Below are positions 1 to 18,840 of a stretch of DNA of 64,000 bases, in pieces. Numbering within the stretch: the stretch's first letter is position 1; each line of letters begins with the position of its first letter. The stretch is from Candidatus Bathyarchaeia archaeon. GTDB lineage: Bacteria; Patescibacteriota; Microgenomatia; PFEM01; JAFGMK01. Below the pieces are notes generated by a model. That model saw nothing but the letters and a program-made list of their open reading frames with translations, ran no database searches and was not told the DNA's origin. The position numbers and the translations under genes were made by a program. Location: contig DATKWK010000017.1 of assembly GCA_035529595.1 (NCBI GenBank), forward strand, positions 116,970 to 180,969. The letters run 5' to 3'.

Positions 1-2466
1 TCTTCAAAAAGAATTGACGAAATTCAGGTGGGTGACATAATTCTAACCCGTGAGGATATTGAATCAACCAGGTTGGTTGAGGCGCGAGTCGAAAAGGTTT
101 TTGTTCATCAGGTTAACGAATATTTATTGGTTAATGGAAATCTGAGAGTAACCCCGGTTCACCGTCTGTTTGTGAATAATCGGTGGCAGATTGCCGGCGA
201 TTTAAAAGTCGGGGATAAACTGGTGGATTATACTGGACAGGCGGTTGAGGTTTTCTCGATCGAGGAAAAGTATGGTTCCTTTAAGGTTTATAACCTGCAA
301 ATTGCCGATTACCGAACTTATTTTGCCAATGGTTTTTGGGTTCACAACCAAAAAGGAAACGGTTTTGAAACGGCCAGAACTGACTTTCCGGCGACCGCTT
401 ATTGGAATCCTCACCTGGAAACTAACGACCAGGGAGAGGTCGAAATTGAAGTTGATTTGCCGGATAATTTGACCACCTGGCGATTGTCGGCAGTGGCGGT
501 TTCCCAAGAAACAGCGGTCGGGTCCGCTGTTCATGAAATTCTAGCTACTAAAGAAGTCTTGATTCGGCCGCTGATGCCGCGGTTTGTAAGCAGCGGTGAT
601 CAGCCTGATTTAGGGGTGATTGTCGTTAATACCAGTGATCAAAACCAAGAGGTGACGGTTAAACTTGAAGGCGAAGGTTTCACCATCGTGGCTAAAAGAG
701 ATCAACAGCAAGTAGTCGGGGTTGGCGGGCAGCAGAAATTTTCCTGGCCGGTTACGGTTACCGCTAAAGATAAAGTCAAGGTTCGATTAAGCGCCGAGGG
801 TAACAGTCAGCAGTTTCAAGATCGGGTTGAACTTGAGCTGCCGGTAGTTAGTTTCAGTACCCCTGAGGTAACGGCGACTTCCGGTGAAGCGGCGGACGTG
901 GCTCAAGAGAAGATTTTTCTTCCGGCTGAGGTCGATCAGACTCAGGGGGCGCTCTCCGTTTCTTTATCGCCTTCGCTTTCAGCCGGCGCCCAGCAGGGGT
1001 TTTCCTACCTGAAGTCTTTTCCTTATGAATGTGCCGAACAAATCGCCAGCCGACTGTTATCAGCCAGTCTTATTTCTCAAGCGATGTCCCAGGCGCAAAC
1101 AGATAAAGCCGGCAATCTGACCCGCCAACAACTGGAAGCAGTTGCCAGTGTGGCCGTCCAGAAGCTTAATAATAGTCAACATCCTGATGGCGGCTGGGGT
1201 TGGTGGATCGAATCAGAAACTGATCCCTTTATCAGCGCTTATGTTTTACAGGCGCTTTGGCAAGCCAACCAAAGTAAGTTTGTTGTTGATCAGTCGACGA
1301 TTGAGAAAACAGCTAACTATCTTCAAGGTCAACTGGCAAGTAGTAGTTCCTACCGATTAACTCTTGATGTCCGGGCTTTTGTCCTTCATGTTCTCAATCT
1401 GACCGGCTTTAAAAACGAAAGTTATCTGACGTCTCTTTATGAAAAACGGTACCAGTTAAACTTGGCCGGCCGGGCTTATCTGGCGATGGCCATGCAGGGG
1501 ACTAATCTTTCCCAGGAGCAAAAAAGAATCTTAGGCGATTTGGTTAGTTTGGTTAAAAAAACCTCAACCGGCAGCCATTGGGAGGAACCAACCCCTGCCT
1601 ATTATTTAATGGGCAGCAACAATACCACCACGGCGGTGATTTTAGAAATGTTGACGATGGTTGATCCTAAGAATCCTTTAATTGATGAGGTGGTTCGTTA
1701 TTTGATGGCTAACAGGTACGAGGGTCATTGGCGCTGTACCCGGGAAACGGCGACAATTATTTTAGGCTTAATGAAACAGTTCTTAACTGCCGGCGAAGGA
1801 AAAATAGATTATGAATATGACGTTACTCTAAATCAAGAAAAAATCTTGTCCGGTAAATTTACCAAGGAAAATCTCTTTGATCTGGTAGAAAAAGAGCTCA
1901 CGATTGGGGAGCTTAAAATCGGTGAAGATAATCCTTTCCAAATCGGTAAAAGCGGTCAGGGGAAACTTTATTACAATTTGGACTTGTCTTATTTCTTGCC
2001 TTTTGAAAAGATTGACGCCCTGGAGCGGGGGATGGTGATTGTCCGGGAGCTGGTCGATAGCCGGGGAAAAGTGCTGAATCAGGAAAAAGTGTCAGCCGGC
2101 CAGGACTACTGGGTTCGGCTTACTGTCGTTGCTCCGCAAGAAAGCCATTACGTGATTATTGAAGATAAATTGCCGGCCGGGTTTGAATCGGTCAATGAAA
2201 GTCTCAAGACGACGAATATTTTAAATGTCGACCGGCCGCCGTTTAAAGAGGAAGCCAACCGTTTCTGGTATTTTAATCACCAGGAGCTGCGTGATGACCG
2301 GACGGTTTTGTTTGCCGATTGGCTGCCCCAGGGAGTTTATGAATACAGCTATCGGGTCCGGGCGACTTTACCGGGCCGCTACCACTATCCGCCGGCTCAA
2401 GTCTACCAGATGTATTTTCCCGATGTCTTCGGCCACTCTTCAGGCGACTGGCTGGTAATCGAATAA
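1..2466 (+). CDS. 5'-truncated alpha-2-macroglobulin family protein with a thioester site, preceded in the same reading frame by a Hint/intein C-terminal domain
   Basis: The reading frame is open from nt 1, so the gene starts upstream of the window. Residues up to nt 348 match intein blocks F/G (KVYNLQIADYRTYFANGFWVHN). Downstream are A2M hallmarks: a TTWRL motif and a thioester-like FPYECAEQ motif, plus beta-sandwich (MG-like) segments. Confidence 0.55.
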   Translation, partial: SSKRIDEIQVGDIILTREDIESTRLVEARVEKVFVHQVNEYLLVNGNLRVTPVHRLFVNNRWQIAGDLKVGDKLVDYTGQAVEVFSIEEKYGSFKVYNLQIADYRTYFANGFWVHNQKGNGFETARTDFPATAYWNPHLETNDQGEVEIEVDLPDNLTTWRLSAVAVSQETAVGSAVHEILATKEVLIRPLMPRFVSSGDQPDLGVIVVNTSDQNQEVTVKLEGEGFTIVAKRDQQQVVGVGGQQKFSWPVTVTAKDKVKVRLSAEGNSQQFQDRVELELPVVSFSTPEVTATSGEAADVAQEKIFLPAEVDQTQGALSVSLSPSLSAGAQQGFSYLKSFPYECAEQIASRLLSASLISQAMSQAQTDKAGNLTRQQLEAVASVAVQKLNNSQHPDGGWGWWIESETDPFISAYVLQALWQANQSKFVVDQSTIEKTANYLQGQLASSSSYRLTLDVRAFVLHVLNLTGFKNESYLTSLYEKRYQLNLAGRAYLAMAMQGTNLSQEQKRILGDLVSLVKKTSTGSHWEEPTPAYYLMGSNNTTTAVILEMLTMVDPKNPLIDEVVRYLMANRYEGHWRCTRETATIILGLMKQFLTAGEGKIDYEYDVTLNQEKILSGKFTKENLFDLVEKELTIGELKIGEDNPFQIGKSGQGKLYYNLDLSYFLPFEKIDALERGMVIVRELVDSRGKVLNQEKVSAGQDYWVRLTVVAPQESHYVIIEDKLPAGFESVNESLKTTNILNVDRPPFKEEANRFWYFNHQELRDDRTVLFADWLPQGVYEYSYRVRATLPGRYHYPPAQVYQMYFPDVFGHSSGDWLVIE

Positions 2467-2497: not shown

Positions 2498-2749
2498 TCA
2501 CTCTTTGCAAGCTCTTTGCCGGTGAATGATTCGGTAAATAATAATTTTCTTGCTTTTATCGAGTTCGTAAATAATTCGATAAGGCCAGGCACGAAGTGAC
2601 CAAAGACCCTTTAATTTGCCGAGTAATGGTTTACCTGAAAAAGGCTCAGATTGGAGTATTTTTAATTTTTTGATGACTTTTCTTTGTTCTGCTTTGGCAA
2701 GATGAGCGAAGTCGTTTTCAGCTTTTTCGGAAAGAATAATTGTCGGCAT
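2498..2749 (-). CDS. RelE/ParE family type II toxin
   Basis: 83 aa with a C-terminal RAWPYRIIYELDKSKKIIIYRIIHRQ pattern typical of RelE/ParE. It lies immediately downstream of an antitoxin-like gene. Confidence 0.55.
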   Translation of the reverse strand: MPTIILSEKAENDFAHLAKAEQRKVIKKLKILQSEPFSGKPLLGKLKGLWSLRAWPYRIIYELDKSKKIIIYRIIHRQRACKE

Positions 2750-2755
2750 TAGATA

Positions 2756-3022
2756 TTATAGCTGGTATTTTTTCTCAAGTTTCTTAAGAGTAATATACTT
2801 TCCTTTTCTGATTTGCCTCCTGGCTTCTTTAATGGATTTTAAAGCATCAGGAATAGAAAGAACCTCCGCAGTTTCTTCAAGAGATTCAAGTTCTTCAAGA
2901 CTCATAACTACCGCCTTGGGCTTTCCGGAAACGGCAACCACAAACCTTTTTAGTTTCTTTTCTACCTGGCTAATAAAGGTTGGTAAATTGGATCTGAAAT
3001 TAGATATTGCCACTGTTTCCAT
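2756..3022 (-). CDS. Phd/YefM family antitoxin
   Basis: METVAISNFRSNLPTFISQVEKK...VVMSLEELESLEETAEVL is the canonical Phd/YefM N-terminus. The track ORF runs to 3058; the internal Met at 3022 is the more likely start. Confidence 0.5.
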   Translation of the reverse strand: METVAISNFRSNLPTFISQVEKKLKRFVVAVSGKPKAVVMSLEELESLEETAEVLSIPDALKSIKEARRQIRKGKYITLKKLEKKYQL

Positions 3023-3188
3023 TGTCTGTAATGTACGATATTTTGTACAAATTGTCAAGGATTAAATTCTTTACGGACCAAACTTTTGGTTGAAAATATA
3101 AAATACCGCTGTACCGTACCTGTTCCACATTAGGGGTGGAACTTTATTGTCAGTAAAGTAAATTTGACAAAAGCCGTTTTGTATTGTA

Positions 3189-3509
3189 TTGTCATTTACA
3201 ATGAAAGACGCCGCTAAACCTAAACCGGTTAAATTTGATTGGAATGAAGGCAATAAAGAAAAAAATTGGCACAAACACCGGGTTGATTTTCGGGAATGCG
3301 AACAGGTTTTTTTTAATCAGCCGTTAAAAATTTTTTATGATAAAAAGCACTCGCAAAAAGAACCAAGATTTGTCGCTTTCGGGAAAACCGATAAAAACAG
3401 AAAACTGATGATAGTTTTTACTCTCAGAGTAAACAGAATTAGAATTATTTCGGCCAGAAACCAAAGCCGAAAAGAAGGGAAAATCTATGAGCAAAAGCAA
3501 AAAAATTAA
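3189..3509 (+). CDS. brnT: BrnT family (DUF497) ribonuclease toxin
   Basis: FDWNEGNKEKNWHKHRVDFRECEQVF matches the BrnT FEWDxxKxxxNxxKHGVSFEEA signature. It overlaps the downstream antitoxin ORF. Confidence 0.55.
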   Translation: MSFTMKDAAKPKPVKFDWNEGNKEKNWHKHRVDFRECEQVFFNQPLKIFYDKKHSQKEPRFVAFGKTDKNRKLMIVFTLRVNRIRIISARNQSRKEGKIYEQKQKN

Positions 3510-3765
3510 ATCAATTCCCAGATTTGAGAACGAAGATCAGGAAAGGGAATTTTGGGCGAAACATGACGTCACCGATTATCTTGATCAATTCGAACCGATA
3601 GAGTTTGATTTATCGGAATTAAAACCTTCAACGAAGTCGGTAACCATCAGATTGCCTGAGTCTCTTTTGGCCGCCTTAAAAAGTCTAGCTCACCGGAAAG
3701 ATATTCCTTACCAGTCGTTAATGAAGGTTTTTCTGGCAGAAAGAGTTAAGCAAGAATTCCGCTAA
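3487..3765 (+). CDS. brnA: BrnA antitoxin (RHH/CopG-like)
   Basis: A 92-aa protein overlapping brnT by 23 nt. The C-terminal TIRLPESLLAALKSLAHRKDIPYQSLMKVFL is BrnA-like. Confidence 0.5.
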   Translation: MSKSKKIKSIPRFENEDQEREFWAKHDVTDYLDQFEPIEFDLSELKPSTKSVTIRLPESLLAALKSLAHRKDIPYQSLMKVFLAERVKQEFR

Positions 3766-3801
3766 AACAACACCCATCACGAATTAATCTTCAGCCGTAG
3801 C
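3764..3801. repeat. 38-bp direct repeat, copy 1 (aaaacaacacccatcacgaattaatcttcagccgtagc)
   Basis: It starts inside the brnA stop codon. A second copy at 4670..4707 is identical except for a tc/ct dinucleotide swap. Confidence 0.8.
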
Positions 3802-4015
3802 CAGAAATCCATTCCTTTTCTGAAAAAAGACTTGGTAAGTTGACTTGTTTTTTTATCTGAAAGAAAGATTAGATGTCAACCTTTCAAGAAATAATAAATA
3901 CCGGCGTGTCGTATTTGTTCCACATCGGGACGGAAATTGTCTGAGAGTTCTATTTACTTGATCGGGTAATTGTGATTTGAAAAAACTTTGCTATAATAAG
4001 CATCAAGGAGAAAAG

Positions 4016-4255
4016 ATGAATAAACGGATCGAAATCAACCCCCAAGTTTTAGTCGGAAAGCCGGTTATTAAAGGAACCAGAATTCCGGTCTATCTGATTT
4101 TAAATCTTTTAGCTCATGGCTACGACTTCAAACGGATTATCAAGGCCTATCCGATTTTGACCAAGGCCGATATTCGGGCGGCGCTTGAATACAGCGAAAA
4201 GAGACTTAAAAGAGAAAAGGTTTTCCCTTTAAGTTTTAAACCAGTTTCAGGATGA
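4016..4255 (+). CDS. DUF433-family protein (antitoxin-like partner of DUF5615)
   Basis: [30 protein letters not shown] is typical of DUF433. A strong AAGGAG ribosome-binding site precedes the ATG at 4016. Its stop overlaps the next start (ATGA). Confidence 0.5.
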
Positions 4256-4617
4256 TCAAATTTCTTCTTGATGCCAATCTCTCTGTTGAAACAGCCCAAT
4301 TTTTAAGAGACCGGAAATTCAATGTTAAAAGTCTTCTGGAAGAGAATTTAGGCCAAATTTCTGATCAGGAAGTAGCTAAGATTGCTTGTAAAGAAGGTCG
4401 AATTATTATTACTCACGATCTTGATTTTGGGGAAATTTACCACTTCAAGGAAGAAGAAAAGCTAGGTATTTTAATCCTCAGGCTGAAAGACCAAACAGTT
4501 GAAGCCGTTAATAAAATCTTAGGTGAATTTCTTAAAAATAAGATAATTCAAAAACAAAAACTTGATCACTCTTTGATAATTCTTGCTGAAAATTCATATC
4601 GAACCTACAAGTCCTGA
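4252..4617 (+). CDS. DUF5615 / Mut7-C-like PIN-fold putative RNase toxin
   Basis: [11 protein letters not shown]...[11 protein letters not shown] pattern. Translationally coupled to the DUF433 gene. Confidence 0.45.
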
Positions 4618-4669: not shown

Positions 4670-4707
4670 AAAACAACACCCATCACGAATTAATCTCTAG
4701 CCGTAGC
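4670..4707. repeat. 38-bp direct repeat, copy 2
   Basis: Matches 3764..3801. An inverted pair ccggagcgg (4644-4652) / ccgctccgg (4719-4727) flanks it. Confidence 0.8.
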
Positions 4708-4801
4708 TATAAATTAACCCGCTCCGGGTGTTGAGTCTTGTATCCCCTCAGGGTAATTCCTGCCGCAGTTGGCAAGTTTTACCCGTCGGGGAGAAGGTCA
4801 G

Positions 4802-5722
4802 TTAGGGTGGGCAGGGACACCAGTCAGGAAAACTGGTGCCGTAGGTGTCTTCCAGTTCCACGCTGGCCAGATCGGCTTGGGTTGGGCTCGATGCGGTGTG
4901 GAAGAACAGCACTGGCGCCCAGGCCTGGGGGTCGACCACCGTCCAGTGGACATGGAAGTCCACAGCGTCTGCCGGCCTCACGTCCCGGTACCACCCAGAC
5001 ATCATTTGATACTGGAATGGTTGGGATCCGTGAGGGACTTCATCTATCCGTGCCCCTTCCCCGGCTGCGAACCAGACCCTCGTCCAGAGACCGCTCCAGG
5101 GGCCCTCTTCCATTCGAACCGTCAACTTGCCGCCGGTTTCGGAGCCAGACAGCTCTAGATAGTTGGCATTGTCCTGCCAGAAGACCCTCCAGACTAATGT
5201 GTCGCTCCAAGCGGAGGGCGGACCGTCGTCCCACTCACCACGGACCCGAAACCAGAAAGTGCCGAACGGTCGGATTAGGTCGACCCAGTTGTGTCCAACG
5301 AACTGGATTTCCTGCCACGTCTGGCCCTCATCCACCGACTCCTGGAGGCGGAAGTAGTCGAAGATCTCCTCAGTGCTAGGGTCGTAGTACTGCCAGAAAA
5401 GGGATACTTCAGTGGAGCCATTGACATCGTTCCACCACTCCGGCCGCCAGGGGAAGTTCTTTCCCATGAGGGGGAAATAGAGAGTGGTGACTGGCGTAAA
5501 GGTGATAGGCGCGGTGGCGATGGCCACGGGTGTCTCTGATTCGGGCTCCTCTTTGGGACGGACGATCCAGCCTCGCTCAGGATTAACCGCTTCCCATCCT
5601 TCGGGAACGGATGGCGGAGTCGGTTCTTGAGCCGAGGCGTGGGTGCCGCAGAACGCGATGATCACCAGCCCCAGCGGGATGGCGATCGCGGCAACGATGT
5701 TGAGCCATTTTTTCTTGTTCAT
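4802..5722 (-). CDS. secreted Trp-rich FN3-like protein encoded on a GC-rich (foreign-composition) segment
   Basis: The segment ~4740-5720 is visibly GC-rich (~60%) against ~40% flanks. The product MNKKKWLNIVAAIAIPLGLVIIAFCGTHASA looks like a signal peptide, followed by an FN3-like W..Y..YRL/FRV pattern. The start is taken at the Met with the signal peptide. Confidence 0.4.
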   Translation of the reverse strand: MNKKKWLNIVAAIAIPLGLVIIAFCGTHASAQEPTPPSVPEGWEAVNPERGWIVRPKEEPESETPVAIATAPITFTPVTTLYFPLMGKNFPWRPEWWNDVNGSTEVSLFWQYYDPSTEEIFDYFRLQESVDEGQTWQEIQFVGHNWVDLIRPFGTFWFRVRGEWDDGPPSAWSDTLVWRVFWQDNANYLELSGSETGGKLTVRMEEGPWSGLWTRVWFAAGEGARIDEVPHGSQPFQYQMMSGWYRDVRPADAVDFHVHWTVVDPQAWAPVLFFHTASSPTQADLASVELEDTYGTSFPDWCPCPP

Positions 5723-6313
5723 GTGTCTCTCCTGAAGTGGGTTATGTGGCTGACGCTTTCCGGCCAAGCGATTCCTCTTGGAGAATGGGTGACTAGTCCT
5801 TTCCTGATCTTTCCTAAGGATCAAGAAAACGAAATCTCCAAGCTGCCGGAAGCAGAAAGGGTAATATTTAATTAAAAGCCAAAACTGCGACTCACCTCGG
5901 AGGAGCCAAGGTCGTTGCCTTGTCACCGTCCGAGGTGTTTGGGCGCTTTCTTAAAAAGTGCAAAGTTGGAAATTACTCCCTCTGTTTCCGGTAGCTTCAA
6001 AGATTTTTCTCCAAGAAACCCTAGTTAACTGACCATGTCAAAGTGCTTCTTGCCGAAAAGAGCCCTTTTCCGGCTGCTTTAATAGCCGGTCAAGATGATC
6101 TTAACCGCAAGGAAAGAGGGAAATGATTATTCTGTCTTTCCTTATGGTTAAGGCAATCAAAAACAAACCCGGTTTTAGAGGTTTATCTTTTGATCTCTAA
6201 AACAGCCTTATTATAGTTCAAACAAAGCCAAATTACAAGTACTATAGGGTTTTTGAAAACAGCTTTACAATTTATGATATGATATTCTCTAGAATAGAAA
6301 TTCATTTTTTGCT

Positions 6314-18593: not shown

Positions 18594-18769
18594 AAAACGG
18601 GCAATAAAAAAATCTGAGCCTTTTGGCTCAGACTACCAATAGTATATCACAAAAAGTCAAAATTGAGCAAAAATGGAAGTAATCTCAGGATGAGATTTTA
18701 GTGGAACTTGTCTGTTTGACTGACTAGGAAATGACGACTGATTTGGTAAAAACTGACAGATTTAACTTG

Positions 18770-18840
18770 AGGCCTGGGCGGGAATCGCACCCGCGTACGC
18801 GGTTTTGCAGACCGCTCCCTGGCTACTCGGGCACCAGGCC
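18770..18840 (-). tRNA. tRNA-Cys (anticodon GCA)
   Basis: Folded by hand. The 7-bp acceptor stem GGCCTGG/CCAGGCC and the anticodon stem GCGGT/ACCGC frame the loop CTGCAAA. The T-stem is GCGGG/CCCGC. The discriminator is U and no CCA is encoded. The T-loop reads TGCGATT (G at position 55, where U is usual). Confidence 0.6.

Follow-up and report, generated by a model that had tools for sequence, protein, structure and literature searches.

A type A bacterial intein-like domain at the bait loop of a bacterial alpha-2-macroglobulin

We analysed a window of 64,000 nucleotides from contig DATKWK010000017.1 (positions 116,970 to 180,969; assembly GCA_035529595.1). It opens within a gene for an alpha-2-macroglobulin (A2M) whose bait loop is interrupted by a Hint domain. 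Judged from its sequence and predicted fold, this domain is a type A bacterial intein-like domain (BIL), for which autocatalysis is predicted. We lean towards the view that the BIL would excise itself and leave a re-joined bait loop.

A Hint domain within a single macroglobulin gene

Frame 1 of window positions 1-2466 is open from the first base up to a stop at 2464-2466 (821 aa). Its beginning matches PT-HINT (Pfam PF07591; aa 3-116 of 821, profile positions 9-136 of 137, E 2.9e-14, 53.9 bits for a cut-off of 27.7), and the NCBIfam model TIGR01443, 'intein C-terminal splicing region', scores above its cut-off at aa 95-116. The matches to PT-HINT, TIGR01443 and the A2M domains in the window are far beyond chance. 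A previous sequence-only reading had interpreted window 1-348 as the C-terminal blocks of an intein ending in His-Asn. This stands, except that block B is present as well and that the stretch carries 116 of the 129 Hint residues.

To obtain the upstream part of the gene, we searched for exact copies of the nearby CopG-antitoxin gene (window 3487-3765). Two contigs were retrieved, one of 385 kb from JGI (L005) and one from Logan (L006). The window starts at L005 position 6515, and L005 and L006 agree with it base for base across the 13,765 bases overlapping L005. The A2M gene (L005:2282-8980) is a single intact open reading frame (ORF) of 2232 aa, and its JGI and Logan copies are identical. The upstream sequence, for which a separate gene or a frameshift had been envisaged, is thus continuous with the window gene and contains Cys1. 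The Hint corresponds to aa 1399-1527 (129 aa), with 1398 aa before it and 705 aa after it. At the N-terminal junction, the full ORF reads NLGSKGGSGGG/CFLPETQILVRGG (slashes mark junctions), so that Cys1 is Cys1399, preceded by GSGGG (GSGGG/CFLPETQ).

Pfam matches in the full protein comprise four Big_5 repeats, bMG3, MG2, bMG5, bMG6, A2M_BRD, PT-HINT, A2M, TED_complement and bMG10. A2M_BRD (aa 1206-1349) precedes the Hint, and PF00207 (aa 1543-1633) follows it. That the Hint is in frame inside a thioester A2M, as the sequence-only reading had stated, is borne out by the macroglobulin (MG) domain, the thioester-containing domain (TED) with CAEQ and the MG10 domain that follow in the same ORF. 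The features of the gene, in window coordinates, are:

1-348, + strand: residues 14-129 of the 129-aa type A BIL Hint (aa 1412-1527 of 2232; PF07591)
39 nt upstream of the window start, + strand: first 13 Hint residues including Cys1 (recovered ORF)
133-162, + strand: Hint block B, NGNLRVTPVH, with the T-x-x-H motif (Thr64, His67)
283-348, + strand: Hint blocks F and G, KVYNLQIADYRTYFANGFWVHN (TIGR01443), with His128-Asn129 at 343-348
349-354, + strand: C-flank, Gln+1 and Lys+2 (Lys+2 at nt 352-354)
355-393, + strand: remaining bait loop and linker GNGFETARTDFPA into the next MG domain (alignment with orthologues and ECAM)
394-666, + strand: MG domain after the bait, Pfam A2M PF00207 (E 1e-22, aa 132-222), with DNLTTW at 463-480
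991-1356, + strand: N-terminal part of the TED, PF07678 (aa 331-452), with the thioester motif C-A-E-Q at 1030-1041
2029-2466, + strand: C-terminal MG10 (PF17973 bMG10; E 6e-35, aa 677-808) and stop codon

Classification of the Hint domain

Type A BILs have reportedly been known since 2003, from work by Amitai et al. (2003) and Dassa et al. (2004), and the C. thermocellum BIL structure 2LWY is said to be that of Aranko et al. (2013). Their defining characters are Cys1, His-Asn at the C-terminus and the lack of a +1 nucleophile (PMC4031507). The A2M Hint has blocks A, B, F and G in 129 aa without an endonuclease insert. It begins with Cys1399, ends in His-Asn, which separates type A from type B, is followed by Gln at +1, and its site is a variable poly-Gly loop of an extracytoplasmic A2M. 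Hence, the suspected BIL-type module agrees with type A BILs in every character that could be tested.

A profile built from 34 family Hints has the C. thermocellum BIL 2LWY as its best match (6.6e-18), followed by Tetrahymena BIL2 (6tmm/6y75) at ~1e-17, with canonical inteins at only ~1e-9. The PT-HINT, Intein_splicing and Hint models match all 34 family members scanned. In addition, an AF2 model of the Hint (pLDDT 93.5) is all-beta and superposes on 6y75 (BIL2; TM 0.88) and 2lwy (TM 0.86) ahead of all inteins.

The A2M BIL shares with 2LWY (30% identity) and the other type A BILs a Hint of ~130 aa without endonuclease, Cys1, the block B T-x-x-H motif, His-Asn, the absence of Cys, Ser or Thr at +1, and insertion into a variable loop of a protein that is extracytoplasmic and has no housekeeping role. 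On the other hand, an A2M host and a bait-loop site are absent among the BIL contexts in the searchable literature, and the site is shared by at least 144 clusters (50% identity), with Gly-Gly at -2/-1 and Lys-Gly at +2/+3 near-invariant.

The best structural match, BIL2 of Tetrahymena thermophila BUBL1 (6Y75/6TMM), also has an N-flank ending in Gly-Gly, as in ubiquitin-like domains. Unlike the A2M BIL, to which it is 24% identical, BIL2 is eukaryotic and cytoplasmic, and is flanked by ubiquitin-like domains that it conjugates to substrates. BIL2 is reported to resolve its thioester with a lysine ε-amine, giving an isopeptide (PMC8616854); by comparison, a nucleophilic role of Lys+2 (98%) in the A2M BIL is conjecture.

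Canonical class 1 mini-inteins (Mtu RecA, Npu DnaB) have the same fold, blocks A/B/F/G, Cys1 and His-Asn. They also resemble the A2M Hint in their presence/absence polymorphism, with a co-conversion-like tract beside the insertion, as after intein homing. However, the A2M Hint lacks a +1 nucleophile and a homing endonuclease, and the similarity is weaker (~1e-9). A canonical class 1 intein was rejected given the +1 Gln, found in two assemblies, and the insertion site, a Gly loop without conservation in a surface protein that is not essential, whereas canonical inteins occupy conserved sites in enzymes of replication or repair. PF07591 is the top-scoring Pfam family for the A2M Hint, as for the PT-HINT domains of polymorphic toxins. 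A pretoxin Hint was nevertheless rejected: downstream lies MG-CUB-TED-MG10 of the same A2M and no toxin domain, and the Hint is internal to a folded multidomain protein rather than a releasing module before a C-terminal toxin. A Hedgehog-type Hog/Hint was also rejected. Such domains are C-terminal, carry a region for sterol or adduct recognition and lack a C-terminal splice junction, whereas the A2M Hint is internal, with 705 aa of A2M behind its His-Asn end, and PF01079 scores below threshold.

Position of the Hint in the bait loop

The best PDB matches of the A2M are 4u48, 4rtd and 4ziq (SaA2M and ECAM), and a natural orthologue without the Hint aligns colinearly with both proteins. The insertion point corresponds to ECAM LAALRFGG/DGDELKRGGKPP, in the bait stretch RFGG/DGDELKRGG. 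Downstream of the Hint, GNGFETARTDFPA aligns with GGNDTSRRDFPDT of the orthologues and with the ECAM bait stretch FGGDGDELKRGG. The alignment with human A2M starts at residue 728, ~5 residues past the insertion point; we take the human bait region to be residues 690-728 (UniProt P01023). The alignments with ECAM/SaA2M and with human A2M therefore indicate that the Hint interrupts the bait loop, whose cleavage fires the trap. The human bait region has 39 residues (PMC9352918), and the ECAM bait stretch is largely disordered (Arg923-Leu942 in the numbering of that study; PMC4498604). The insertion site itself is a Gly-rich linker of variable sequence in which only glycines are conserved, and insertion does not depend on the loop sequence.

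In human A2M, loss of bait-region continuity triggers the collapse, and an all-Gly/Ser bait is functional (PMC9352918). In A2M-family proteins, bait discontinuity is itself the trigger (PMC9352918; PMC4498604). The sequence-only reading had supposed that the Hint releases a secreted protein. This part is not supported: with 1398 aa of the same A2M ahead of it and a position in the bait loop, the Hint is internal, so that cleavage would split the trap in two instead of releasing it.

The host macroglobulin and its neighbour

The domain set of the ECAM/SaA2M type is complete, with MG domains, a bait-region domain (BRD), a TED with CxEQ and a C-terminal MG10. The likeness to ECAM (E. coli YfhM) and SaA2M extends over MG2/bMG3/bMG5/bMG6, BRD, A2M, the TED with CxEQ, bMG10 with RDDR, and a pbpC-type neighbour. 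In the MG10 region, RDDR is at nt 2290-2301 and YQMY at nt 2404-2415; in ECAM and SaA2M, the matching CTMG motifs make contact with the TED and with the cleaved bait (PMC4498604). The retained CxEQ and MG10 RDDR suggest that the protein would trap proteases upon bait cleavage. In contrast to ECAM and SaA2M, the window A2M is ~600 aa longer and contains four Big_5 repeats, has hydrophobic N-terminal helices instead of a lipoprotein signal, has a short poly-Gly bait loop broken by the Hint, and is hosted by a bacterium of the candidate phyla radiation (CPR). A hydropathy scan located three hydrophobic segments within the first 170 aa, suggesting that the A2M is anchored in the membrane and mostly extracellular. 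To our knowledge, CPR bacteria have no outer membrane.

The upstream gene (L005:43-2292) encodes a class A penicillin-binding protein (PBP) with Transgly, Transpeptidase and a weak BiPBP_C match, and shares 11 nt with the start of the A2M gene. The same PBP-A2M arrangement is found at a Gottesmanbacteria locus (PBP at L007/L009:3486-5945). Co-transcription of the A2M gene with a PBP1C-like gene in a Microgenomates (CPR/Patescibacteria) genome is part of the explanation that we consider best. The A2M/PBP1C pairing was described for ECAM (PMC4498604). Since a PBP adjoins the CPR A2M, this pairing, known from Proteobacteria, is conserved in CPR bacteria. A CPR genome paper presents A2M-domain proteins as large surface proteins and mentions no Hint (PMC8080830).

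In members of the CPR A2M subfamily without the Hint (P0169-P0197), the bait region, equivalent to about nt 340-390, is very short and almost pure Gly (KGGSGGGGGGGNDTSRR). The family shows CPR bacteria relying on a minimal poly-Gly bait, in a protein encoded in one operon with a PBP1C-like enzyme. Such a loop could serve as bait for lysostaphin-type Gly-Gly endopeptidases, which would fit the PBP partner.

The source metagenome-assembled genome is labelled 'Candidatus Bathyarchaeia archaeon' by NCBI (protein HUW21212.1; P0151). The contig is probably bacterial (CPR), mis-binned or mislabelled, because the named relatives of the A2M are all Microgenomates/Patescibacteria and its neighbour is a peptidoglycan class A PBP.

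Conservation across the family

Relatives were collected by an exhaustive HMMER search with the Hint plus MG region (240 aa) as query, and are representatives of 50%-identity clusters. At a threshold of E <= 1e-30, the search returned 271 such representatives, and the first 150 are almost all A2Ms of 1.6-2.3 kaa with the Hint at the same site. At least 144 clusters have it there. A word-index homology search with window aa 1-240 gave no match, and one with the Hint profile only eight short proteins. Scans of genome and metagenome contigs gave only relatives at 41-42% identity. Besides the window protein, relatives with a named source all belong to CPR/Patescibacteria (Shapiro-, Gottesman-, Levyi-, Portnoy- and Pacebacteria, and the Microgenomates group).

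Junctions were counted in 144 complete copies, and block residues in an alignment of 145 sequences. Gly-1, Cys1 and the terminal His-Asn are each present in 144/144 copies, and His-Asn also in 145/145 aligned sequences. Conservation is similarly high for Asn58 (143/145), Thr64 (144/145) and His67 (145/145). After the Hint, the +1 residue is Q in 49 copies, D in 49, E in 23, G in 13, S in 4, K and N in 2 each, and L and A in 1 each. Residue +2 is Lys in 142/145 sequences (98%), and +2/+3 is Lys-Gly in 125 of the 144 complete copies. At Hint position 118 in block F, His is found in 116/145 sequences and Arg in 4/145. The window copy has Arg there (aa 105, nt 313-315), which is its sole notable deviation, all family-invariant residues being kept. 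No decayed Hint was seen among the 144 complete copies. Overall, the invariance of the catalytic residues in more than 140 diverged clusters is indirect evidence for autocatalytic cleavage or splicing by the A2M BIL.

The +1 Gln, which the sequence-only reading had described as non-nucleophilic, is genuine, being identical in two assemblies. Q, D, E or G occupies this position in 134/144 relatives, so that the Gln is not a sequencing error. Of the 133 copies whose C-terminal part is complete, 109 retain the CxEQ motif. The other 24 (e.g. P0034, P0039, P0052) have lost it but have intact Cys1, His-Asn and Lys+2.

Members of this BIL clade are also found in other large proteins (P0035, P0049, P0005, P0101), where two to five Hints follow one another in tandem; one of these proteins has a Tim44-like domain and another a metallophosphatase. 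There, the Hints are 2-6 residues apart (HN-KG-C, HN-GKGGGG-C), again with Lys after HN. No second Hint is encoded in the 64-kb window.

Presence, absence and exchange of the cassette

Orthologues with 38-54% identity to the window protein fall into 30 that contain the Hint and 20 that do not. The junction reads KGGSGGG/C..HN/QKGGNDTSR with the Hint and NLGAKGGSGGGGGGGNDTSRRDFPDTAYWNP without it. The orthologues without the Hint at 50-54% identity have KGGSGGGGGGGNDTSR, equal in length to the predicted spliced product, KGGSGGG-QKGG-NDTSR. In these proteins, the positions of Gln+1 and Lys+2 are Gly, and the DNA indel spans C...HN-QK. As read from these alignments, Gln+1 and Lys+2 travel with the Hint cassette. 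Since C...HN-QK replaces about two to four Gly, a re-joined loop would match the length of the loop in proteins without the Hint.

On the extein tree, orthologues with and without the Hint are interspersed, and parsimony requires at least 12 changes of state among the 50. The closest comparison is a Gottesmanbacteria pair, P0155 (2141 aa, with the Hint) and P0175 (2012 aa, without), which are >99% identical in protein over ~2000 aa, have the same gene neighbourhood and share ~99.9% DNA identity. Over 14.3 kb of DNA, the two alleles are distinguished by a 387-nt indel and 26 single-nucleotide polymorphisms (SNPs), of which 14 are clustered within 150 nt just 3' of the indel (Poisson p ~1e-24). 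The indel and the adjacent SNP-dense 150 nt form a co-conversion signature, indicating that the cassette moves by recombination. A second allele without the Hint has a different breakpoint. Loss by simple deletion between flanking GGAGG repeats was considered for the allele without the Hint and rejected, because the sequence at the junction is inconsistent with it and SNPs are dense in the adjacent 150 nt.

The Hint has a GC content of 33%, versus 39% in the rest of the gene. Hint identity follows host identity in close pairs and levels off at about 0.44 in distant ones. Where flank identity is <0.4, Hint identity is never >0.68, and a recent horizontal transfer between distant hosts was therefore rejected. 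The absence of near-identical Hints in distant hosts indicates an old association, with exchange among relatives.

Proposed mechanism and alternatives

The sequence-only reading held that a Hint with a non-nucleophilic +1 residue can only cleave. This is too strict. Type A BILs are reported to splice without a +1 nucleophile, the freed amino group attacking the thioester (PMC4031507), and BIL2 ligates via lysine (PMC8616854). By analogy, we propose that after export and folding, an N-to-S acyl shift of Cys1 at the invariant Gly-1/Cys1 bond would form a Gly thioester. Asn129, aided by His128, would then cyclise, cutting the HN/Q bond. The +1 nucleophile being absent, the thioester would be attacked by an amine of the freed C-terminal half, either the α-amine of Gln+1, in line with the proposal for type A BILs, or the ε-amine of Lys+2, as in BIL2. 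The 14.9-kDa Hint would leave, and the A2M bait loop would be covalently continuous, Gly-rich and equivalent to that of orthologues without the Hint. A fraction may be hydrolysed to two chains.

We regard this self-excision with re-joining as somewhat better than an even bet. Re-joining is favoured because bait discontinuity is the trigger, because alleles with and without the Hint coexist in one population, and because the product would have the length of the Hint-less loop. Several points weigh against it. Type A BILs give mostly cleavage products in vitro (PMC4031507; PMC7664689), and a single +1 change to Cys, Ser or Thr leads to efficient BIL splicing (PMC7664689). Ser is found at +1 in only 4/144 copies, which is odd if efficient ligation is strongly selected. 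A role of Lys+2 is suggested only by conservation and analogy. The Arg of the window Hint at block F, where 80% of the family have His, might slow Asn cyclisation. Finally, the presence/absence polymorphism means that both forms are tolerated, which is not proof of identical mature products.

The main rival, in keeping with the sequence-only reading, is an outcome in which the BIL cuts one or both junctions and the halves are not re-joined. The A2M would then be pre-triggered and collapsed, or a two-chain protein comparable to furin-processed C3/C4. We hold this outcome possible but the less probable of the two. A non-nucleophilic +1 residue in 140/144 copies, as if persistently avoiding a nucleophile, agrees with it, as do reviews reporting predominantly cleaved BIL products (PMC4031507; PMC7664689), and the invariant catalytic residues at both junctions fit cleavage as well as splicing. 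However, with bait discontinuity as the trigger of collapse (PMC9352918; PMC4498604), a cleavage-only element would discharge the trap, and constitutive cutting would inactivate it. Moreover, the coexistence of ~99.9%-identical alleles with and without the Hint, and at least 12 state switches, argue for an equivalent product, and the spliced product would equal the loop length of the Hint-less orthologues.

It is rather unlikely, in our judgement, that the BIL is a working part of the trap, either through a branched bait loop bridged by Lys+2 (isopeptide) or through conditional junction cleavage acting as a built-in, protease-free trigger. If true, the Lys+2 route would be a lysine-directed 'splicing' chemistry so far known only from a ciliate BIL. 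The trigger route would fire the A2M thioester without an attacking protease, for instance fixing an episymbiotic CPR cell covalently to its host.

A specifically adaptive trigger would have the unprocessed Hint, with its adjacent N and C termini, keep the bait loop closed until a signal (thiol, pH, metal or target nucleophile) fires N- or C-cleavage. The thioester would then bond to a nearby target, such as the surface of an episymbiont's host. The Hint sits exactly at the A2M trigger element, its catalytic residues are invariant in >140 clusters, BIL2 activity is metal-modulated (PMC8616854), and CPR A2Ms are large surface proteins (PMC8080830). We still find this trigger quite improbable: the Hint is sporadic among orthologues and near-identical alleles exist with and without it, which is unexpected for an indispensable regulatory module, and 24/133 A2Ms with an intact Hint have no CxEQ, so that retention of the Hint is not coupled to the thioester.

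Lastly, the gene start cut off in the window and the Arg in place of the usual block F His could have signalled a non-functional element (the remnant of a decayed intein, a pseudogene, or an error of assembly or sequencing that hides a +1 Cys, Ser or Thr), which is hardly credible given the intact 2232-aa ORF, two identical independent assemblies, the family-invariant residues present, Gln, Asp or Glu at +1 as the family norm, and 271 cluster representatives at E <= 1e-30.

Novelty and significance

What appears new is the A2M host and the bait-loop site; the kind of domain, a type A BIL, is already known. We found no paper describing a combination of a BIL, Hint or intein with a macroglobulin in the literature that could be searched. 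The statement of the sequence-only reading that the combination is not described therefore holds for papers. It does not hold for sequence databases, where the architecture is abundant and auto-annotated (e.g. in UniRef as 'Intein C-terminal splicing domain-containing protein').

The arrangement places a predicted self-processing module exactly at the A2M element whose continuity controls the trap. With at least 144 diverged clusters and matched, ~99.9%-identical alleles with and without the Hint, the family is a large natural data set for questions on BILs that can be tested, namely the product in the native context, the spread of an endonuclease-free cassette, and the purpose of the flanking Gly-Gly and Lys-Gly. 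A compact BIL that may ligate without a +1 side-chain nucleophile could also serve traceless protein ligation. Should the BIL be no more than a neutral passenger, the BIL catalogue would gain an ordinary entry, albeit a well-documented one.

Other features of the window

Three back-to-back toxin-antitoxin pairs (window 2498-4617) lie directly downstream of the A2M gene. Just past them is an island of ~1.2 kb (window 4700-5900) with 58-62% GC, versus ~38% in the genome, which looks like recently acquired foreign DNA. The sole Rfam/ARAGORN match in the 64 kb is a tRNA gene. The coordinates are:

2498-2749 and 2756-3022, - strand: ParE/PhdYeFM
3201-3509 and 3487-3765, + strand: BrnT/CopG-type antitoxin
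4016-4255 and 4252-4617, + strand: DUF433/DUF5615
4802-5722/5926, - strand: ORF of 306-374 aa in the GC-rich island, with no Pfam match on record
18769-18840, - strand: tRNA-Cys (GCA)

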